In this document: positions 1 through 35,070 of the stretch, in pieces | How positions within the stretch are numbered: position 1 is the stretch's first letter | Layout: every line of letters starts with the position of its first letter | DNA from: an uncultured Candidatus Saccharibacteria bacterium | GTDB taxonomy: Bacteria > Patescibacteriota > Minisyncoccia > Phycocordibacterales > UBA9973 | Direction of reading: 5' to 3' | DNA length: 41,297 nucleotides | Assembly (NCBI GenBank): GCA_964461985.1 | Contig: CAYWWG010000002.1 | Location: 1 to 41,297, forward strand | The notes under the pieces: model-generated | What the model saw: the letters and a program-made list of their open reading frames with translations, nothing else | Databases searched by the model: none | Told to the model about the DNA's origin: nothing | Program-made: the position numbers and the translations under genes

Positions 1-50
1 AGTCGTAACAAGGCACGGCTAGCGGAAGCTGGTCGTGGAATAATTCAATT
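1..50 (+). rRNA. rrs: 16S rRNA, extreme 3' end (partial; gene body lies upstream of the window)
   Basis: Universal AGTCGTAACAAGG at 1-13. Helix 45 is intact (14-23 pairs with 28-37, GGAA tetraloop 24-27). The tail at 38-50 reads GAATAATTCAATT where canonical 16S reads GATCACCTCCTTA. The exact mature 3' end cannot be determined. Confidence 0.85.
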
Positions 51-213
51 TGAAACCGTGTTTATATCTATTCAACCAGATATACACTTATGGTGTCGAT
101 ATTGTGCAGCTCGATCGAGTGCATAATGGTCCAAGCATGTCGTGACCTTAACCATGTTGACGCCAGGGAAAGACCTGGTCAGAACGAAACAAAAGAAAGT
201 TTGTATCCTCTAC

Positions 214-240
214 AAAAACCGCCGAAAGGTGGTTTTTGTT
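214..240 (+). terminator. Intrinsic terminator closing the 16S transcription unit
   Basis: ACCGCC-GAAA-GGTGGT hairpin (218-233, GNRA loop) followed by TTTTTGTT. Confidence 0.75.
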
Positions 241-250
241 ATTGTGTAAT

Positions 251-286
251 GGCAACGGAAATTAACGGCCGTTAATTTACGTTGCC
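251..286. other. Long near-perfect hairpin between two convergent terminators
   Basis: GGCAACG-G-AAATTAAC / GTTAATTT-A-CGTTGCC. About 15 bp are paired, with one mismatch and a GGCC apex. Confidence 0.5.
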
Positions 287-4821: not shown

Positions 4822-4935
4822 TCCCATAATTGTATAGATTTAAATAATTATATTTATTTTTACTCTACACTTTTTATATTCTTTAGTCAAATATATTTTA
4901 TATATAAATAAATAAGTTTTTGCTATAATACACAC

Positions 4936-5430
4936 ATGAAATTAAAAAAGAAGATTATACCTATTATTGTTTCAGTCCTGGTTATTGTTGGTATCAGCTA
5001 TGTTATATATAGTAAAGTTGAACCACGACCATCTGTATATGACAACACTCCTTTACAACAAAAACGTATATTAATCGGTAGTACTACATATACTGTGTCA
5101 GTTGCCGATACAGAGGCTCGCCGAGAACAGGGTTTGTCTGGTACAAAATCCTTGTTACCACATACGGGTATGCTTTTTGTTTTTGAAAATTCTGGTAAAT
5201 ATGGTTTTTGGATGAAGGAAATGCAATATCCGATAGACATTGTTTGGGTAAATGTAAATGATCAAGGTGTTGGTAGTATTGTGGACATTGAACAAAACGT
5301 GCAACCCGAAACATATCCTAAAATTTTTACAAATGTCAATATTGCCAACGCTGTAATCGAGGTTACAGCCGGTGAAATGGCTAAACAAAATATAAAAGTC
5401 GGGGACACTGTATACCTCGGTAAAAAATAA
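4936..5430 (+). CDS. DUF192 (COG1430) family protein with an N-terminal membrane anchor
   Basis: GLSGTKSLLPHTGMLFVFENSGKYGFWMKEMQYPIDIVWVN matches the DUF192 core. TATAAT at 4924-4929 lies 6 nt before the ATG. Confidence 0.7.
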   Translation: MKLKKKIIPIIVSVLVIVGISYVIYSKVEPRPSVYDNTPLQQKRILIGSTTYTVSVADTEARREQGLSGTKSLLPHTGMLFVFENSGKYGFWMKEMQYPIDIVWVNVNDQGVGSIVDIEQNVQPETYPKIFTNVNIANAVIEVTAGEMAKQNIKVGDTVYLGKK

Positions 5431-7951: not shown

Positions 7952-7988
7952 TTTGCCAAATATGAAAAATAGTGTTATATTTAAAAAG

Positions 7989-8458
7989 TTCTGTGCCGAA
8001 GTGGTTACGTCCGCCAACTGGCGGATGAGGAAAGTCCGAACACATACCTATTTAGTTAGGACACGTAGCGGCCCCGACACTGAAAGGTGCGGGGTTCCGG
8101 CCCCGTAAGGGCGTCGGAGGTAACACCCGTCTGCTGTAAAGCACGAGTTGCGAACAGAAACGATCCGGTTAAGTCCGGCTGAAACGGGGCCGACGATTTG
8201 TCGGCCCTCCGACCCCGTAAGGGCGTCGGAGCTAAATACTTACGCGTGTGCAAGACCGTGCCAGCGTGCATAGCACGCAGTTTGTAAAGTAAAAAGTATA
8301 AAGTTCATAAAGTAGATGCATTTGTATTATCTTTTAACTTTTAACTTTAAAACTTTATAACTTGCGTGCTATGCACGTGGGAGAGTCGCTTGAGGTTGTA
8401 GGTAACTACAATCCTAGATAAATACCATTAGAACAGAATTCGGCTTACGAGCACAGAA
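7989..8458 (+). ncRNA. rnpB: RNase P RNA, bacterial type A, unusually long (~470 nt)
   Basis: P1 forms from TTCTGTGC (7989-7996) and GCACAGAA (8451-8458). Conserved GAGGAAAGTCCGAAC lies at 8028-8042, and the 3' block TCGCTTGAGG...CCTAGATAAATA...ACAGAATTCGGCTTA at ~8385-8448. The core is much more GC-rich than its surroundings. Confidence 0.9.
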
Positions 8459-8462
8459 TATG

Positions 8463-8490
8463 AAAAAACTCTTCGAAAGAAGAGTTTTTT
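8463..8490 (+). terminator. Intrinsic terminator of rnpB
   Basis: AAAAAACTCTTC-GAAA-GAAGAGTTTTTT. Confidence 0.85.
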
Positions 8491-9383: not shown

Positions 9384-11678
9384 ATGTCATTGTTAAATCT
9401 ATTTAAAAACAAGCACGAAAAAACAGTTCTGTCGTACAAGCCGATCATTGCATCGGTTGCGTCTTTTGAGTCAGAAATGCAGGCATTAGCTGATGCAGAT
9501 TTTCCACTAGAAACAAATAAACTTAAAGAACAAATACAGTCCGGTAAAACACTCGACGAAGTTTTGCCCCGCGCGTATGCTTTAGTGCGAGAAGCTTCAC
9601 GTCGTGTTATAGGTCAGCGCCATTACGATGAACAAATTATCGGTGGTATAGCTATACACCGCGGCATGATAGCTGAAATGCGTACAGGTGAAGGTAAAAC
9701 TTTGGTAGCAACATTACCGGCATATCTGCACGCACTTACAGGTCTGGGTGTACATATAGTTACAGTTAACGATTACCTTGCACGTCGTGACGCAACATGG
9801 ATGGGGCAGATTTTTGCATTTCTAGGCGTATCTACATCTGTTATTAATGGTCAACAAACTTCATATATATATGACGCATCACATAGTGCACCAGAAGACA
9901 CTAACGATGACGAATCTTTCCGTGTTGTGTACGAAAAACTTCGACCATGTACACGAATCGAAGCTTATCAGGCAGATATAACTTATGGTACAAACAGTGA
10001 GTTTGGTTTTGACTACTTACGCGACAACCTGGTTTACTCTGTGGATCAACGCAGTCAACGTGGTCATGTTTATGCTATTGTCGACGAAATAGATTCAATA
10101 TTAATCGACGAAGCGCGCACGCCTTTAATTATTTCTTCGGAAGCTGAGAAATCTGACGAGCTTTATAAAACTTCAGCAAGTGTTGCAAAAAAGCTACAAA
10201 AAGAAGTCGACTACACAGTGGATGAAAAACTTAAAGCCATACAACTAACTAACGACGGTATAAACCATGTCGAGTCTTTGCTTGGTGTTACAGATATATA
10301 TACAGAAAAAGGTATAAAATATGTACATCATATAGAAACGGCTGTGCGTGCATATGCATTATATATAAAAGATAAAGACTATGTAGTTAAGAATAACGAA
10401 GTTATAATAGTTGACCCTTTTACTGGCCGTATGCAACCAGGTCGCCGATGGTCTGAAGGTCTACACCAAGCCGTAGAAGCCAAAGAGGGTGTGCCAATCG
10501 AAAACGAAACACGTTCTGTTGCGTCCATAACATACCAAAACTATTTCCGTTTTTACGAAAAACTCGGTGGCATGACAGGTACAGCAGAAACTTCAGCTGA
10601 GGAGTTTTATAAAGTTTACAAATTAGATGTATTACAGATACCAACACATTTACCTGTAAAACGTATTGACCATATGGACCAAATTTACCAAACTGAACAA
10701 GGTAAATTCAAAGCCATAGCAGAAAAAGTTAAAGAACTTCAAACAAAGGGTCAACCTGTATTAATAGGTACTGTGTCTATTGAAAAAAGTGAAATGCTTT
10801 CTGCGTATCTGCATCAAGCCGGAGTTGCTCATACTGTATTGAATGCTAAGAACCATGAAAAAGAAGGTGAGATTATAGCCCAGGCGGGTCGCAAGGGTAG
10901 TGTTGTCGTTGCAACTAACATGGCGGGTCGTGGTGTGGACATATCTCTAGGTGGTAAACCATGTACACCAGAACAAGCAGACGAAGTGCGCGCACTGGGT
11001 GGTTTGTTTGTATTAGGTACCGAGCGCCACGAAGCTCGTCGTATAGATAACCAGTTACGCGGACGTTCAGGCCGTCAAGGTGACCCAGGTGAAACAGTGT
11101 TCTATGTATCATTAGAAGACGACCTAATGCGTATATTCGGTGGGGACAGACTTAAATCTATGATGGGTCGTTTCGGTATACCTGAGGAAACGCCTATCGA
11201 AAATAAAATAATTAGTCGCACACTAGAAAATGCTCAAGCTAAAATAGAAGGTTTCCATTTTGATGCACGTAAAAGCACTTTGGAATACGATGATGTTTTA
11301 AATACTCAGCGTACGGCTATATATAAACGGCGTAATAGTATTGTCGAAGGTGACCGGGCAGTTTTGAATTCATATCTAGAATCTCTTTCTGAAATAGACG
11401 AGAAGGCACCCGAGATAGTTGCTAACAAGATCAAAGAAGTAGGTGAAGAAGCTTTTTTTGATGTTCTAAGACGTATTTTACTGAACGTAAACGATAATTT
11501 GTGGGTAGAACACCTTGAAACTATGGACTATATGCGTAGTTCTGTTAACCTTCGAGCCTATGGTCAACGAGATCCATTGATCGAATACAAGAAAGAAGGC
11601 TTACGCCTATTTAAGACCATGGAACAGTCTCTAAAGGCCGAAACTTTGAACCTAATTGAGACCATAAGAATACAGTAA
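9384..11678 (+). CDS. secA: Preprotein translocase ATPase SecA
   Basis: Conserved throughout (MRTGEGKTLVATLPAYLHAL, DEIDSILIDEARTPLIIS, TNMAGRGVDI, LRGRSGRQGDPG). I start at ATG 9384 (MSLLNLFK) rather than 9342, because TATAAT at 9372-9377 lies 6 nt upstream of it. Confidence 0.97.
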   Translation: MSLLNLFKNKHEKTVLSYKPIIASVASFESEMQALADADFPLETNKLKEQIQSGKTLDEVLPRAYALVREASRRVIGQRHYDEQIIGGIAIHRGMIAEMRTGEGKTLVATLPAYLHALTGLGVHIVTVNDYLARRDATWMGQIFAFLGVSTSVINGQQTSYIYDASHSAPEDTNDDESFRVVYEKLRPCTRIEAYQADITYGTNSEFGFDYLRDNLVYSVDQRSQRGHVYAIVDEIDSILIDEARTPLIISSEAEKSDELYKTSASVAKKLQKEVDYTVDEKLKAIQLTNDGINHVESLLGVTDIYTEKGIKYVHHIETAVRAYALYIKDKDYVVKNNEVIIVDPFTGRMQPGRRWSEGLHQAVEAKEGVPIENETRSVASITYQNYFRFYEKLGGMTGTAETSAEEFYKVYKLDVLQIPTHLPVKRIDHMDQIYQTEQGKFKAIAEKVKELQTKGQPVLIGTVSIEKSEMLSAYLHQAGVAHTVLNAKNHEKEGEIIAQAGRKGSVVVATNMAGRGVDISLGGKPCTPEQADEVRALGGLFVLGTERHEARRIDNQLRGRSGRQGDPGETVFYVSLEDDLMRIFGGDRLKSMMGRFGIPEETPIENKIISRTLENAQAKIEGFHFDARKSTLEYDDVLNTQRTAIYKRRNSIVEGDRAVLNSYLESLSEIDEKAPEIVANKIKEVGEEAFFDVLRRILLNVNDNLWVEHLETMDYMRSSVNLRAYGQRDPLIEYKKEGLRLFKTMEQSLKAETLNLIETIRIQ

Positions 11679-15500: not shown

Positions 15501-15733
15501 AAACGGCTACGTGGGGCAACGTATGCCTCAACTCCGATGATCGGTTTTATTTCTTTTTTCTTACATTCCTGATAAAACTCGATAGCCCCGTATAGGTTGC
15601 CGTGGTCGGTTAATGCAATAGCTTGCATGCCGTCGGCTTTTGCAGCCTTTACTAGTTCAGGTATTTTAGAAAGCCCATCTAATAGGGAATAATGCGAATG
15701 GGTATGAAGATGAGTAAAAGGCTTTACTTCCAT
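12536..15733 (-). CDS. dnaE: DNA polymerase III alpha subunit
   Basis: PHP domain (FTHLHTHSHYSLLDG), polymerase core (GRMPDIDLDI-like PDIDLDIADDRRDE, KFDFLGIRNL) and an OB-fold C-terminus. 1065 aa. TATAAT at 15746-15741 lies 7 nt upstream of the ATG. Confidence 0.97.
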   Translation of the reverse strand: MEVKPFTHLHTHSHYSLLDGLSKIPELVKAAKADGMQAIALTDHGNLYGAIEFYQECKKKEIKPIIGVEAYVAPRSRFDRDPGIDNKRYHLTLLAENMTGYKNLLKLVSLSYTEGFYYKPRMDKEILSTYSEGIICLTGCPGGELAQMLLNKNIPKAKEVLEEWINIFGRENLYIEVMNHAEIDGYQEVIQHLIALSKEYNIPLVGTWDAHYLHVSDAEAQDTLVAINTGADISNQKMSMKNGNYSFITSAEAYEFFRNIPGAYDNTAVIVERCNLELTLGKFFFPEFILPPGTNADDVLRETAYAGIKTRGIEMDENVKARLDYELEVIKTKGYSSYFLIMHDLMRHARENGILTNTRGSAAGSFVSYVCGITNVDPILYKLPFERFLNPFRPSAPDIDLDIADDRRDELIEYARQKYGAEKVAQIGTFGTMAARGAVRDVARALGYPYTTGDRISKMIPMGSQGFPMTLDHALEIVPELKEAYDSERDVKTIIDLAKKIEGSARHISVHAAGVVIAPGPLTDFTPVQFDPKGGKLITQYDMYSVGEDGVGLTKFDFLGIRNLAFLASSVLLLEKITGKVIDLDTVPIDDKKTFEMLARGETEGLFQLNGSGMTQALKKLKPTTIHDINVMVALYRPGPMQTIDEYIARKNGEKPIIYYHPKMKDYLLTTFGLLVYQDDLLFTAIELAGYDWGEVDKFRKAVGKKIPEEMAKQHVKFVEGCKSCSGLTEHQAEKIWALFEPFQGYGFNKAHAASYGKVAYQTAYMKANYPVYYMTAMLTAESGDIETIGIYINECRRMGLNILPPSINESFHAFTIAKEDRVPLDKSRTIRFGLYTIKNLGGDIADAIIAERKARGPFTSIDNFLDRMTHKNLNKKSMEALIKSGAFDDLGERNQLLVNSEALLEYNREYARKSDSQSSLFSIGLAQHQLKLTPTEPATLTEKLNWEKELLGLYISGHPLDNFAKRLEGKNTIEEIKKSKKKTGIVQLGAIVEEIRKVQTKTGEFMAFLKIADKTGSIEAVIFPKNYREFIKIVESSPTLGIAGRTTVRNDEKSIVIEKVIALV

Positions 15734-15821
15734 AGGCCCTATTATACGCTTTTACGCGAACTGACGAAATGTTGACAAACGGGGTGTATATGGGTAAAGT
15801 TAGGTCAAAATATATAGTTAT

Positions 15822-16139: not shown

Positions 16140-16168
16140 GTGTTTCTATGAATTGATATAATTAAAAT

Positions 16169-16840
16169 ATGCGTAAAGAACCTTTAGTGACAGGTGAATA
16201 TTATCATATATATAATCGTGGTGTAGATAAGCGTGATATTTTTATGTGCAAAGAAGACCTAGAACGTTTTATTGAAAGTATTTTAGAGTTTAATAATGTC
16301 GAGGTTATTACCAGTATATCAAATGTAAGAAAAACAAAGAACCAGATAGTGCCTGAAGCACTATCTGGTAAACCGCTAATCTCTGTTATTGGTTGTTGCT
16401 TGAATCCAAATCATTTTCATTTTATTTTGAAACAATTAGAAGATGGGGGTATATCTAAATTCATGCAAAAACTACAAGCAGGATATACATATTATTTAAA
16501 TGTTAAAAATTCTCGCACAGGTGCATTGTTGCAAGGTGCTTTTAAATCGCATCATATCTATGATGATAATTATTTTAAAAAACTGATTGGTTATGTAAAT
16601 TTTAATAACGAAGTACATGATATACCTTTAGAAAAATCACACCTAGTTTTCTCTGGTAGTTCAGAATATAAAAATAATAATTTCAATGTTATTTCAAAAA
16701 TAGAAGGTGAAAATATTTTAAAAATGTTTGGTGGTGTAAAGGGATTTGAAAAATATTGTAAAGAAATAATTTCTGTAATCAGAAAAGAAAGAGGTAAAAT
16801 GTCATTGTTAGAAGAAGATAATTTACCAGATAGGACCTAA
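16169..16840 (+). CDS. REP-associated tyrosine transposase (RAYT; IS200/IS605-like Y1 HUH family)
   Basis: The GEYYHIYNRGVDKRDIF N-terminus, the HUH motif in NPNHFHFILKQ, and the Tyr-containing helix QAGYTYYLN...RTGALLQGAFKSHHI are typical of PF01797-type RAYTs. TATAAT at 16157-16162 lies 6 nt before the ATG. Confidence 0.8.
   Translation: MRKEPLVTGEYYHIYNRGVDKRDIFMCKEDLERFIESILEFNNVEVITSISNVRKTKNQIVPEALSGKPLISVIGCCLNPNHFHFILKQLEDGGISKFMQKLQAGYTYYLNVKNSRTGALLQGAFKSHHIYDDNYFKKLIGYVNFNNEVHDIPLEKSHLVFSGSSEYKNNNFNVISKIEGENILKMFGGVKGFEKYCKEIISVIRKERGKMSLLEEDNLPDRT
16341..16369. repeat. REP-like hairpin 2, in frame inside the RAYT coding sequence
   Basis: ACCAGATAGTGC-CTGAA-GCACTATCTGGT, a perfect 12-bp stem. 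Its 25-nt core is the exact reverse complement of hairpin 1. It encodes residues N58-G67 (NQIVPEALSG). Confidence 0.8.
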
Positions 16841-25030: not shown

Positions 25031-26039
25031 ATAGTTTTACCACAGTGTATTCTTCAGGTGCTTGTTTAAGATATTCTTCAATTTTTTCTTTACTTAACAA
25101 ACCTGCTTGTGCACCTATATGTTGTACGACTGACATTGAGTTTACTGGTCCGTAGCGTAAAGCTTCTTTAAAAGACATGCCGTTTGCCATCATGGCTACA
25201 ATAGTTGAACTTGTTGCGTCGCCAGCACCAGTACGTTCAACAGGTGGTGCGATGTCTGGGTATTCTGATAATGTGTAAATGTTTACACCGTCAGATGCAT
25301 CTAGACCTTTTGATCCGTCTGTAATAACAACCTTTTTAGGTCCAAGGTTGTGGATGTTTTTTATTAGCACGGCCATATCATGCTCGTCCGGGGTTTCTAA
25401 TATACGTTGTGCTTCTTCTTTGTTACAGAAAAATATTTCTGTGTGTTGATATAGTTCTGCCAAAACTTTTGTGCCAAGTTTTATTTGAAATGTCCCAGGC
25501 TGGAAAGCTAGTTTAACATTAGGATGTTGTTTAAGGTATTCAGTAAGTTGTAAATGGTATGGTAGTGTGTTGTCTGCAATAGAAGAAAAGTATATCCAAC
25601 CAGGCTCTGGTAAATTCATTGGAAAATCATAAGGGAATTCAGTGTGTTTTATAAGTATTGTTCTGTCTACTTCGTACCAAAGTACAAAATGGTAGTTTGA
25701 TGCATAGCCAGGAGCAATAACCATGTGGTCTGTAATAACATTGTTCTTTTTTAGTTCTTCAATATTACCACGACCTATTTCGTCATCACCGATGTATGAC
25801 ATTAAGGCACTTTTTACGCCTAAACGCGCCGCTGCCACAGCAGCATTTGCGCTGTTACCAACAGCTCGACATAGTGTAACTGATTCGTAAGGAATTTTGT
25901 CTCCGTAACGCATAGATAGCACACAGTTTTCATTGTCTAGTTGGCATGTAACCTGTGCATCTTTTAATTTTATAAAAGGTTCGGTTACTATGTCACCTAT
26001 AGCTAAAAATTGTATTTTTTCAGAATTATTATTTTGCAT
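25029..26039 (-). CDS. PfkB-family carbohydrate kinase
   Basis: Ribokinase-like fold motifs: GNSANAAVAAARLG, and the TGAGDATSS anion-hole motif near the C-terminus. TATAAT at 26051-26046 lies 6 nt before the ATG. Confidence 0.8.
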   Translation of the reverse strand: MQNNNSEKIQFLAIGDIVTEPFIKLKDAQVTCQLDNENCVLSMRYGDKIPYESVTLCRAVGNSANAAVAAARLGVKSALMSYIGDDEIGRGNIEELKKNNVITDHMVIAPGYASNYHFVLWYEVDRTILIKHTEFPYDFPMNLPEPGWIYFSSIADNTLPYHLQLTEYLKQHPNVKLAFQPGTFQIKLGTKVLAELYQHTEIFFCNKEEAQRILETPDEHDMAVLIKNIHNLGPKKVVITDGSKGLDASDGVNIYTLSEYPDIAPPVERTGAGDATSSTIVAMMANGMSFKEALRYGPVNSMSVVQHIGAQAGLLSKEKIEEYLKQAPEEYTVVKL

Positions 26040-26102
26040 TACGTTATTATATCATAGGTTGCTGTGTTTGGTTAAAATATTTCTACAGGGTATAATATAA
26101 CA

Positions 26103-26987
26103 ATGAAAACATTACGCGAATATGTACATGAAGCAGAGAGCAAGGGTGTGGCTATAGGACATTTTAATATTTCTAATTTAGAGGGTCTGCATGGTATATA
26201 TAATGCTGCAAAAAAACTTACAGCAGAAACAGGTGCACCCGTTCCTGTAATAATAGGTGTTTCAGAAGGGGAAGAAAAGTTCGCTGGACTAGAAGAGGTT
26301 TTTGCTTTGGTTAATGAAATACGTACTCGCGACAATTACCCAATATTTTTAAATGCTGACCATCATGCATCTTTTGAATCAGTTAAAAAATGTATTGATA
26401 CTGGTTTTGATATGGTAATTATTGATGCTGCAAAACTACCTTTTGCAGAAAATGTTGCTGTTACAAAACAGTGTGTCGACTACGCACGCAGTGTTTCTAA
26501 AAATACAGGCAGAGACATTTTAGTTGAAGCTGAGCTAGGTTATATTGGTTCTGGTTCTATTATTCGCGACATTATTCCTGAAGGTGCAGGTGTTTTGACA
26601 AAACCCGAAGATGCAAAGAATTTCGTTGACGCTACAGGTATAGATTTGTTTGCACCGTCAGTTGGTAGTATCCATGGTCTAATAAAAACAGGTAAACCAC
26701 ATATCGATGCACAATTAGTTAAAGAAATAAAAAATATTACTGGTGTGCCTCTTGTTTTGCATGGTGGTTCTGGGCTCGCGGATTCAGATTTTACAAATGC
26801 TATTACGGCAGGTATTTCTATTGTTCATATAAATAGCGAAATACGTTTGGCTTTTAAAGAAGCAGTAGAAAAGTTTATTCAAGAAAATCCAAACGAAATA
26901 ACCCCAGCAAAAATATTAGGTCCGGCTGTAGATGCTATTGAGGTTGTCGTCTACAATAGATTAAAATTATTTAACCGAATTGTTTAA
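26103..26987 (+). CDS. fba: Class II ketose-bisphosphate (fructose/tagatose) aldolase
   Basis: GHFNISNLE, LNADHH, LVLHGGSG and INSEIR motifs. Divergent from the pfkB gene. Confidence 0.85.
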   Translation: MKTLREYVHEAESKGVAIGHFNISNLEGLHGIYNAAKKLTAETGAPVPVIIGVSEGEEKFAGLEEVFALVNEIRTRDNYPIFLNADHHASFESVKKCIDTGFDMVIIDAAKLPFAENVAVTKQCVDYARSVSKNTGRDILVEAELGYIGSGSIIRDIIPEGAGVLTKPEDAKNFVDATGIDLFAPSVGSIHGLIKTGKPHIDAQLVKEIKNITGVPLVLHGGSGLADSDFTNAITAGISIVHINSEIRLAFKEAVEKFIQENPNEITPAKILGPAVDAIEVVVYNRLKLFNRIV

Positions 26988-32480: not shown

Positions 32481-32497
32481 CTGTATAATAATATTAT

Positions 32498-33472
32498 ATG
32501 ACTATCGATATCGAAGCACTAAAAAAGAATCATAAAACATCTTACCTCGCTGGTGAATACGAGAGACTTCAACATGAATTACAAGAGGTGCGTGACATGA
32601 TAACTGCCGACCCAACAATGGCTGAACTTGGTCAGACTGATATAGATACTATTACTATGCAATTAGATGCATTAGAAAAACAACTTGAATCTATAACTGA
32701 AGCTGAAAAGGCTGAAGAAGAATTTCCAAATGAAATAATTCTTGAAATACGTGCGGGTGTTGGTGGTGACGAGGCATCACTGTTTGCATACGAATTGGCA
32801 TATATGTACCAAGGCTATGCCGAGTCCAAGGGTTTTCAAGTTAAACGTCTTGAAATAAGTGAAAATGATGTAGGTGGTTATAAAGAAGCTGTTTATGAAA
32901 TAAAAGGTAAAGAAGTTTATAAATATTTCCGTTATGAAACAGGTGTACACCGTGTTCAACGCATACCAGCAACAGAAAAAAACGGACGCGTGCATACTTC
33001 GACAGCATCAGTTGCTGTTTTGCCAATGCGTAAAAAAGTTACTTTTGAAATAAATCCTGCTGATATAGAAATCGAATATTCACGTTCAGGTGGTGCTGGT
33101 GGACAGAATGTTAACAAAGTTGAAACTGCTGTTCGTCTAATACATAAACCAACCGGCATGGATGTACGTTCTACATCTGAACGTTCACAACTAGCAAACC
33201 GTGAAAAAGCTATGACTATTCTTACAGCCAAGTTACAGCAAATGAAAGAAGAAGAAGAAAATAAAAAATATGCCGAAAATCGTGCTAACCAAATAGGCAC
33301 AGGTGATAGAAGTGAAAAAATACGTACCTATAACTTTCCACAGGATCGTGTAACCGACCACCGAATACGTCAGTCTTGGTCTGGTATACCTACTATAATG
33401 AGTGGTAAAATCGATAAAATAGTTGATGCATTACTAAGTGGGGTAGTTGGCTCTGAAGACACAACTGACTAG
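32498..33472 (+). CDS. prfA: Peptide chain release factor 1
   Basis: PAT tripeptide (RIPATEK) and GGQ ([11 protein letters not shown]). At 324 aa it has a short N-terminal domain. Confidence 0.93.
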
Positions 33473-33507
33473 TTTTTGTTTTTAGTTTTGTAGTATAATA
33501 GACGTAT

Positions 33508-35070
33508 ATGAATAAAAAGAACCTCGTCAGGCTTTGCATTGTTTTAGTGGCTATTTTTGTTGTTTATGTAAACACTCAAAAAAGTAAAGCATCTTTTAGT
33601 GTTGTTGATTGTACGAATGTTACAGACTTAACAACCTTAGGTGGTGGTGTTACACCCATACCTCAAGCCGAATGTGAAGCTTTAGAAGATTTATACACTT
33701 CTACTAATGGCAGTTCTTGGACTAACCATACTAACTGGGACACTGCTACTGACGTCGGCACTTGGCGTGGTGTAACTCGAACAGGGGCACACGTAACAAA
33801 GATTTCTCTAATTCACAACAATCTGGTTGGTAGCATACCTGCATCTATAGCCGACCTTACGTATCTAGAAGATTTTCGTCTAAGCTCAAACAGCCTTTCT
33901 GGTTCGATTCCTGATATTTCTGCTTTAACAAATCTTTTGTATTTGTATTTAGACGACAACCAATTAACAGGTTCAGTACCATCACTTTATAGTAATACGG
34001 CATTACAATATTTAGAATTAAGTGAAAACCAACTTACTGGTTCAATACCATCACTTTCTAATAATACTGCATTATATCTCTTAGATCTTTCCAGAAACCA
34101 GTTAACTGGTTCATTGCCTTCTTTAGTAAACAATACTGCACTTTTTGATTTTAATGTTGAAACAAATAAACTTTCAGGTACAATACCGTCTTTATCTGCA
34201 AATACTTCTTTAGCAGCTTTTAATGTAAGTTATAATAATTTTAGTGGTGAAATTCCAGATATTTCAGGTTCGTCTATAACATTTTGTTCATTTAAAGAAA
34301 ACTCTTTATACACAAGTTCAAATAGTGTTGATCTTGATATTGATACAAGATGTTCTGAAAACTGGTCTAGTACACAAACCATTGCACCGACTGGTTTAAC
34401 TGTAACTAGAAATGGTAATAATGTTGTAATAACCTGGAACCCGATAGAATACACAAGTATCGGTAGTTATAATATTTATTCCAGTGATGTAACCGGCGGA
34501 CCGTATACAAACCTCGAAGCAACCATAGCTAGAAACGCAGGCTCAACTGTAACGATCACCGCCCCGAATACAAATAAGTATTACATTATTCAGGCATACA
34601 CACCCGCACACCCTTCGGGATTATCTGATTCGTCACAACAAACTAACCTGTCTGTAAATTCATCGGAAGTTGCTTTTATAGCTAGAACTAGTGGCGGGGG
34701 CGGTGGAATGTTGGCGGAAATAGCAAATAAAATAAATAATGCTTCAGCTAATTCTACAAAACCAAAAGTTTTAGACGATAAAAAAATTATTCCAACTCCA
34801 AACGCGGGTTGCCCTGCAAAGTACCCAGCATTTACTTATTTAGATTTATTTAAACCATGGCCAACAAAAAATATACAGTGGTTGTTAAACGAAGAAGTTA
34901 ATGCCCGTATTCGTATCGATGGTCATGGTGGAGTAAAAACTAGAAATGGTATTCTTTTATACAAAAAGAAATACCAATCTGAAATAGGTCTTAATGACGA
35001 TCAAATTAAATCATCTTATATTGATTCTAAGACATTGGCCCATATAAATGCCAAGTTATGTGCCAAATAA
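33508..35070 (+). CDS. Secreted plant-type LRR protein with an FN3-like domain and a C-terminal PG_binding_1-like domain
   Basis: Signal peptide. Cap CEALEDLY..W.....W.GVT. About seven 23-24-aa repeats of L..L.L..N.L(S/T)GSIPS. An FN3-like segment (APTGLTVTRNGNNVVITWNP). A GGGGG linker. The C-terminus NIQWLLNEEVNARIRIDGHGGVKTRNGILLYKKKY resembles a peptidoglycan-binding domain. Confidence 0.7.
   Translation: MNKKNLVRLCIVLVAIFVVYVNTQKSKASFSVVDCTNVTDLTTLGGGVTPIPQAECEALEDLYTSTNGSSWTNHTNWDTATDVGTWRGVTRTGAHVTKISLIHNNLVGSIPASIADLTYLEDFRLSSNSLSGSIPDISALTNLLYLYLDDNQLTGSVPSLYSNTALQYLELSENQLTGSIPSLSNNTALYLLDLSRNQLTGSLPSLVNNTALFDFNVETNKLSGTIPSLSANTSLAAFNVSYNNFSGEIPDISGSSITFCSFKENSLYTSSNSVDLDIDTRCSENWSSTQTIAPTGLTVTRNGNNVVITWNPIEYTSIGSYNIYSSDVTGGPYTNLEATIARNAGSTVTITAPNTNKYYIIQAYTPAHPSGLSDSSQQTNLSVNSSEVAFIARTSGGGGGMLAEIANKINNASANSTKPKVLDDKKIIPTPNAGCPAKYPAFTYLDLFKPWPTKNIQWLLNEEVNARIRIDGHGGVKTRNGILLYKKKYQSEIGLNDDQIKSSYIDSKTLAHINAKLCAK

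Follow-up and report, generated by a model that had tools for sequence, protein, structure and literature searches.

A 16S rRNA gene without the anti-Shine-Dalgarno core, and apparently leaderless gene starts, in a Paceibacteria-type CPR bacterium

The stretch of DNA analysed here (41,297 nucleotides, referred to below as the window) begins with the 3′ end of a 16S rRNA gene in which the core of the anti-Shine-Dalgarno (anti-SD) sequence is missing. Taken together, the data make it very probable that the gene is a functional, stand-alone 16S rRNA gene of a CPR bacterium without an anti-SD, in which genes have leaderless-type starts and the 16S tail has been remodelled in a covarying manner.

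Window positions 1–50 are the 3′ end of a bacterial 16S rRNA gene, i.e., its last 50 bases as delimited by Rfam. They align to positions 1484–1533 of the RF00177 model (E 2.8e-8, truncated at the 5′ side), and the posterior probability is maximal (“*”) at all columns of the alignment. The sequence reads, in order, AGTCGTAACAAGG CACGGCTAGC GGAA GCTGGTCGTG GAATAATTCAATT. The following features were assigned in this part of the window:

14–37, + strand: helix 45, with stem CACGGCTAGC at 14–23, GGAA loop at 24–27 and stem GCTGGTCGTG at 28–37
38–50, + strand: 16S tail of the canonical length of 13 nt, GAAUAAUUCAAUU (DNA GAATAATTCAATT)
55–211, + strand: rrs 3′ trailer, non-conserved and structured, varying among relatives, with a strong predicted fold
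212–239, + strand: intrinsic terminator for rrs, consisting of a terminator-like hairpin and a run of T

Direct reading of the helix 45 stem gives 10 pairs out of 10, two of which are G-U, and the helix is unchanged in all 94 distinct related sequences. Its GGAA tetraloop would be the site of the two dimethyl-adenosines. Both this reading and the RF00177 alignment confirm the original prediction, which had been made from the letters of the window and had placed the stem at 14–23/28–37, with the GGAA loop at 24–27. The prediction that the tail at 38–50 lacks CCUCC is likewise correct: where the RF00177 consensus is GAUcACCUCCUUu, the window has GAATAATTCAATT. AUUCA stands in place of CCUCC, and of the old core only U8 and C9 are left. 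CCTCC is absent from window positions 1–260, where the sole CCTC is at 207. Thus, the claim that no CCTCC occurs up to the terminator stood, while the terminator itself, predicted at 214–240, was found at 212–239 instead. A scenario that had been named as contradicting the prediction, namely, processing that restores a CCUCC-containing tail, is impossible from the DNA of the window, since there is no CCTCC in 1–260. We conclude that this is a genuine 16S 3′ end without the anti-SD core.

An 11-kb ENA contig, L001, which was found via the neighbouring protein (344–1870, − strand), reaches upstream of the window and contains the entire gene:

L001 9458–7963, − strand: full-length 16S rRNA gene, 1369.2 bits, model positions 1–1533, with a tail identical to that of the window

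Recovery of the whole rrs gene from the parent contig had been proposed as a check of the original prediction, and the full-length, high-scoring gene that was recovered left the reading of the tail unchanged. Upstream of the 16S gene, L001 carries secF, a terminator and a TTGACT-16-TATAAT promoter located ~120 nt before 16S. Since no LSU rRNA is present in the 41-kb window downstream of 16S, and since a terminator is located at 212–239, the 16S rRNA is not co-transcribed with 23S rRNA and forms a stand-alone unit. The features that mark it as monocistronic, with a promoter and a terminator belonging to 16S alone and no linked 23S, lie in window positions 1–240 and L001 positions 9458–9611. In 17 out of 18 relatives, no 23S was detected within at least 6.5 kb downstream of 16S. 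Unlinked rRNA genes, defined by more than 1500 bp between 16S and 23S, are known for Patescibacteria (Brewer et al., bioRxiv 705046), and the 16S gene of the window is unlinked in this sense.

Several further observations concern the surroundings of this unit. L001 and about 20 related loci share a conserved leader box, YTTTTGTTCCGTTCT, with the variants TTTTGCTCCGT and CTTGTGTTCCGCC, located 15–45 nt upstream of the 16S 5′ end; this may be a boxA-like antitermination or processing element. Between the rrs terminator (212–239) and the terminator of the convergent gene (304–329), there is a near-perfect 18-bp inverted repeat without a loop (250–286; GGCAACGGAAATTAACGG / CCGTTAATTTACGTTGCC). A lone tRNA-Ile(GAU) gene (35118–35190, + strand) lies between the LRR protein gene and trhO, 35 kb from 16S. 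The normal location of tRNA-Ile(GAU) is the 16S-23S spacer. In many relatives, a tRNA gene is found 0.3–1.6 kb downstream of 16S. A class A RNase P RNA gene (7988–8463, + strand) scores 100.3 bits against the Rfam threshold of 100 and exceeds the model by ~110 nt in length, carrying several large insertions; relatives L026 and L058 also have RNase P RNA, within ~5 kb of 16S.

We scanned one genome per GTDB species with the helix 45 sequence as the pattern and with the tail left free, which yielded at least 120 loci. Every one of the matches listed (at least 120 species genomes) belongs to Patescibacteria/CPR, the groups among them being Paceibacterota, Nomura-, Kaiser-, Zambryski- and Yonathbacteria and others. 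Among the matches listed, CCTCC is found in the 13 nt after helix 45 in 0 of 120, in line with what the original prediction, which had proposed a comparison of tails from relatives, would lead one to expect. The identical 13-mer GAATAATTCAATT is present in 18 of the 120 matches listed, and the best 16S identity to the gene of the window among them is ~84–85%. By this comparison, the organism is a CPR bacterium of the Paceibacteria/Parcubacteria type, and none of the loci compared comes from a close relative. Judging from the same set of tails, the loss of the anti-SD is a fixed, lineage-wide and phylogenetically coherent trait of the clade and not a one-off error.

The same helix 45 followed by a canonical GATCACCTCCTTTCT tail was found in only six contigs (L124–L129) of a metagenome set of 241 million records. 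It follows that the ancestral state exists, but is rare. These six contigs may represent clade members in which SD is still in use. They were tried as a natural SD-positive control, but the sample was too small and was contaminated by spurious ORFs in rRNA. Three of the six carry AATCATGAACAAGG or TAACATGAACAAGG in place of AAGTCGTAACAAGG just upstream of helix 45, and L125 and L127, which represent one organism, contain four genes with good AAGGAG/GGAGG sites. In another relative, L054 (2981–3026, − strand), the tail is GAAUUUCUCCUUUUAAGGAGUA, and a CUCCU remnant in it pairs in cis with AGGAG; the resulting 5-bp hairpin stands at the same position as the mini-hairpin of other tails that is described below.

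For the analysis of translation starts, non-overlapping long ORFs were collected with a crude longest-ORF caller, and a 50-kb piece of E. coli K-12, treated in the same way, served as the control. The SD-like 4-mers scored were GGAG, GAGG and AGGA. None of the 34 window genes has such a 4-mer within 20 nt of its start, with a background of 2.9%. In the E. coli control, there was a clear SD peak at spacer 5–11, and 33% of genes had a match at spacer 4–12 vs 2.4% in the background. The claim that gene starts in the window support SD-independent initiation is thus upheld by a count of 0/34 obtained with a procedure that is positive for E. coli. When 369 ORFs of relatives (8-kb pieces) were grouped into six named tail classes, no SD excess over background was detected in five of them; relatives with the tail class of the window had SD-like 4-mers in 6.0% of 67 ORFs vs 7.5% in the background. 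The GAATATTTCAAGG tail class (23 ORFs) had a weak SD-like excess, 26% vs 13%. Therefore, the expectation that SD sites would show no enrichment elsewhere was borne out in five classes but not in the sixth. These counts support SD-independent initiation.

The start codon is ATG in 30 of the 34 window genes. For dnaE, aldolase, bL25, bL31, AspRS and TrhO, the called starts fit the N-termini of the respective families, the N-terminus matching profile position 3 for dnaE and profile position 2 for aldolase. The programmed frameshift of prfB, which needs SD–anti-SD pairing, was considered as an independent test and set aside, since the release factor encoded in the window is RF1, not RF2. In this release factor 1 (32498–33472, + strand), ~40 N-terminal residues of the family model are missing, the match beginning at profile position 41–45.

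An exact TATAAT located 6–10 nt before the start codon was found for 11 of the 34 window genes (mode 6) and for 0/42 in the E. coli control. At any other spacer between 0 and 39, only two were seen in the window genes. All 11 TATAAT-proximal genes start with ATG, and 5 of the 11 have an extended −10 element, with TG one base upstream of the hexamer. The 11 arrangements are as follows:

4924–4938, + strand: TATAAT, 6 nt, ATG of the DUF192 gene, a leaderless-type start
15731–15746, − strand: TATAAT, 7 nt, ATG of dnaE, a leaderless-type start
16157–16171, + strand: TGaTATAAT, 6 nt, ATG of the IS200-like gene
20046–20064, + strand: TGcTATAAT, 10 nt, ATG of the C-terminal half of transketolase
23610–23627, − strand: TGgTATAAT, 9 nt, ATG of the GT2 glycosyltransferase gene
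24308–24323, + strand: TATAAT, 7 nt, ATG of the DUF975 gene
26037–26051, − strand: TGaTATAAT, 6 nt, ATG of the PfkB kinase gene
26091–26105, + strand: TATAAT, 6 nt, ATG of the class II fructose-bisphosphate aldolase gene
32484–32500, + strand: TATAAT, 8 nt, ATG of the release factor 1 gene
33494–33510, + strand: TATAAT, 8 nt, ATG of the LRR protein gene
36932–36946, + strand: TATAAT, 6 nt, ATG of a 135-aa ORF

In addition, the bL31 gene has a TATTAT box, also of the extended TGn form. With the looser TANWAT pattern at spacer 5–10, 35% of window genes were matched vs 6% in the background. In relatives with the same tail, a −10-like box at spacer 5–10 was present in 27% of 67 ORFs vs 1.5% in the background; in the GATTAATTCAA tail class, the corresponding values were 22% and 5%. 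In leaderless genes, the 3′ end of the −10 box is located ~6–7 nt from the ATG, and transcription starts at or next to the A. A TATAAT positioned 6–10 nt before ATG thus points to leaderless mRNAs, and translation of the window genes appears to begin, for the most part, without a leader. Several genes without a −10 box lie 3–20 nt behind the preceding gene, and reinitiation coupling is plausible at such closely spaced genes. The literature searched contained no paper linking leaderless initiation to Parcubacteria, Patescibacteria or CPR.

Some other genes of the window deserve mention. Transketolase is split (region 17033–21048, + strand) into an N-terminal half (17033–17986) and a pyrimidine-binding/C-terminal half (20062–21048), which are separated by two ORFs of 548 and 130 aa without a family match; these ORFs are located in the lowest-GC stretch of the window (29%) and look like an insertion. 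The IS200-like Y1 transposase gene (16169–16840, + strand), with a weak Pfam match (E 5.5e-6), is divergent from dnaE. The 508-aa protein encoded at 344–1870 (− strand) has a T9SS type A sorting domain (Por_Secre_tail, E 1.1e-8, above cutoff), and a Bacteroidota-style type IX secretion system is unexpected in a CPR genome.

The remodelled tail contains one more element:

44–54, + strand: candidate mini-hairpin UUCA-AUU-UGAA, which replaces or extends the tail

The aligned tails, with the loop in brackets, are GAWUAAUUCA[AUU]UGAA, GAUUAAUUCC[AAUU]GGA, GAUUAACUCA[AAU]UGAG, GAACAUAUCC[AAUC]GGA and GAAUAUUUCA[AGG]UGAA. U8 and C9 are kept in 86 of 94 distinct tails, and a GA 3–7 nt downstream, placed to pair with U8C9, is found in 80 of 86 tails vs 39% after shuffling. 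The inner pair, followed in 66 distinct tails, is A-U in 38 and C-G in 26, there being no A/G or C/U and two A/C combinations. Covariation at this pair is strong (Fisher 1.7e-18, permutation 0/10,000, slid controls 0–48%), with the p-values overstating independence because the sequences are related. In each of four tail-prefix groups, both types of inner pair are represented, pointing to repeated switches. At the outer pair, 49 tails have U-A, five have C-G and one has G-C; where position 7 is C, the pair is C-G in five out of six tails. Taken over all tails, the outer pair does no better than permuted data, and only one pair of the hairpin covaries strongly. Information content is high up to tail position 17–18 and then collapses, so that the conserved element ends with the 3′ arm, 4–5 nt past the canonical 13-nt end. 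The isolated hairpin, as folded by ViennaRNA, has an MFE of 0 kcal/mol for the version of the window and of −0.7 to −3.1 kcal/mol for others.

The clean pair counts given above come from a position-anchored rule made for this analysis; MAFFT does not bring the forms with 3-nt and 4-nt loops into one register. A generic best-hairpin search was uninformative, since A/U-rich shuffles make 4-bp stems 47% of the time, and a position-anchored test was therefore needed. A covariance model (R1) obtained from the ungapped alignment A1 did not re-register tails with 4-nt loops, and alignment A2 added nothing over A1. In a pair count on A1, where the unchanging helix 45 and sequences out of register dilute the result, the hairpin has 72.6% paired cells, and its covariation beats all 500 shuffles and all slid versions. 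We regard the hairpin at window positions 44–54 as a supported candidate. Most likely, it either belongs to the mature 3′ end or defines where this end lies.

One can also imagine that the conserved palindrome after helix 45 is an element of the pre-rRNA that is trimmed away and is not found in the mature ribosome, where it could serve as a stop for a 3′-to-5′ exonuclease, as a nuclease recognition site or, by pairing with the 5′ leader, as one side of a processing stem. We consider this possible, though rather unlikely. In its favour, the isolated hairpin is thermodynamically marginal, and RNase III, RNase J and PNPase are reportedly retained in CPR genomes (PMC12641178). In duplex predictions between leader and trailer, which are noisy, tail positions 1–8 have a modest preference for their own 5′ leader over those of others (−3.22 vs −2.66 kcal/mol, 0/300 permutations); in L001, the leader sequence UUAUUU at −8 to −3 is able to pair with GAAUAA of the tail. 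However, this complementarity falls on tail positions 1–8 and not on the arms of the hairpin, and the own-leader preference is gone when tail positions 1–18 are used (62/300). The fact that conservation reaches exactly to the end of the 3′ arm fits a trimmed and a mature element alike. There is only a slim chance that the altered tail acts instead as a new anti-SD that pairs with an altered, A/U-rich motif upstream of genes. Upstream regions are indeed A/T-rich, and AATTATT-like strings, with complementarity to the AAUAAUU stretch of the tail, occur in some of them, but duplexes of the tail with positions −25 to −1 are weaker than those with shuffled upstream sequences (−2.81 vs −3.36 kcal/mol). 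Tail-complementary 5-mers are present in 19 genes vs 24.0 after shuffling, and 6-mers in 10 vs 10.0; since upstream regions are thus no more tail-complementary than shuffled ones, an alternative anti-SD was rejected as a candidate. Moreover, genes that start 6–8 nt past a −10 box would offer no upstream RNA for pairing with the tail, and among 128 taxa without an anti-SD, Amin et al. detected no variant SD to match (PMC6107228).

Two more explanations concern the gene copy and the assembly. It is very unlikely that this rrs copy is degenerating or non-functional and that a canonical anti-SD is carried by a further 16S gene of the organism, even though the same helix 45 is known to be followed by the canonical GATCACCTCCTTTCT tail in the six metagenome contigs. 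Those contigs belong to other organisms, as all six differ downstream and three differ just upstream of helix 45. The gene itself is full length (1369 bits) and is flanked by a near-consensus promoter and a terminator; the tail is identical in 18 species and free of CCUCC in 120 of 120 among the matches listed; only one match was obtained in CP174360.1 (L066), a complete genome of the clade with a size of 579 kb; and the window genes are without SD. A decaying copy had been put forward as the alternative to the original prediction, and the intact transcription unit and the lineage-wide nature of the trait contradict it. An artefact of assembly or sequencing at the edge of the contig or the window is scarcely credible. 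The feature does sit at window position 1, and a second assembly (L002) is interrupted within helix 45. L001, however, covers the complete gene with an identical tail and continues for another 1.5 kb, and the tail is common to many independent MAGs.

The preferred reading is therefore retained, in which a functional 16S rRNA without an anti-SD is matched by genes that need none. According to it, the CCUCC core was lost in the clade, and the ribosome, having no CCUCC, would be unable to use SD pairing. The mRNAs would be adapted to this condition: about a third of genes have a −10 box, often of the extended TGn type, 6–10 nt before ATG, which would place the transcription start at or within a few nucleotides of the start codon and result in leaderless mRNAs. 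Many of the remaining genes lie 3–20 nt behind the preceding gene, where termination-reinitiation coupling would be possible. The remodelled tail would run 4–5 nt past the canonical end and could form a hairpin of 3–4 bp (44–54), with pairing presumably maintained by compensatory changes across the clade. A more specific version, which we offer tentatively and hold to be doubtful, is that the tail was rebuilt from the U-C remnant and the 4–5 nt extension as a hairpin of the mature 30S subunit, occupying the platform site of the SD helix, and that most promoter-proximal genes are leaderless. If this version were true, the clade would be one in which the SD mechanism has been replaced wholesale, in both rRNA architecture and mRNA design.

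Few bacteria have lost the anti-SD, and those that have show that SD pairing can be dispensed with. The window provides a clean and consistent CPR example, in which the rRNA tail, the missing SDs and the promoter-adjacent start codons agree. Gene callers with SD models will misplace starts in these genomes, and 16S annotation that stops at the 13-nt tail may truncate a conserved element. The clade now has a cultured relative, Minisyncoccus, of the class Minisyncoccia (PMC12281837).

Among the closest known systems is that of Tsurumaki et al. 2022 (RNA 28:1041, PMC9297842), who found the anti-SD motif in only 48% of Parcubacteria; Parcubacteria without an anti-SD overlap with the group lacking uL1 (PMC9297842). 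Both the lineage and the trait, i.e., disappearance of CCTCCT from the 16S 3′ end, are the same as in our case. The core finding is thus already published for a subgroup of Parcubacteria, and the window is a further example of it. PMC9297842 gives only the presence or absence of the motif and describes neither the replacement tail nor the arrangement of a −10 box and ATG. What we add, and infer from sequence, are the leaderless-type gene starts, with their TATAAT-ATG signature, and the covarying remodelled tail with its hairpin, neither of which was found in the literature searched. The organism of the window has bL9, bL25 and bL31, and no uL1 gene is present in the 41-kb window, a result that applies to the window and not to the whole genome. 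Era GTPase recognises GAUCACCUCC, and era is lost in most CPR (PMC10582724; PMC12641178), which fits a tail that is free to change.

16S genes lacking an anti-SD are recognised as a class by a good helix 45 with no CCUCC(U) in the 13-nt tail after it (Lim 2012, Amin 2018 and Tsurumaki 2022), and this is what is found at the start of the window. The taxa of Lim et al. 2012 and Amin et al. 2018 (PMC6107228), which are Chryseobacterium/Elizabethkingia/Riemerella, Blattabacterium, some Mycoplasma and Carsonella, are also without SD and have no compensating variant SD. Intact helix 45, a 13-nt tail without CCUCC(U), the lack of SD and phylogenetic clustering are common to them and to the window. 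Unlike them, the window represents another phylum and has a replacement tail that is conserved over more than 100 species, with a stem that covaries. In Bacteroidia (Jha et al. 2021, PMC7797042), SD-blind initiation is likewise lineage-wide, and the 3′ tail is unavailable to mRNA, but CCUCC is retained and is hidden in a bS21/bS18/bS6 protein pocket. In contrast, no canonical CCUCC is retained in the 16S rRNA of the window, and any occlusion of its tail would be through self-pairing of RNA.

Bacteria rich in leaderless genes include Actinobacteria such as Mycobacterium, as well as Deinococcus, and gene-start models have a “bacterial leaderless” class for them. Bacteria of the Mycobacterium/Deinococcus type keep a canonical anti-SD and use SD on leadered genes. 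The window resembles them in having a −10 box ~6–8 nt before the start, a strong preference for AUG and no SD on the genes concerned and differs from them in that the anti-SD is wholly absent.
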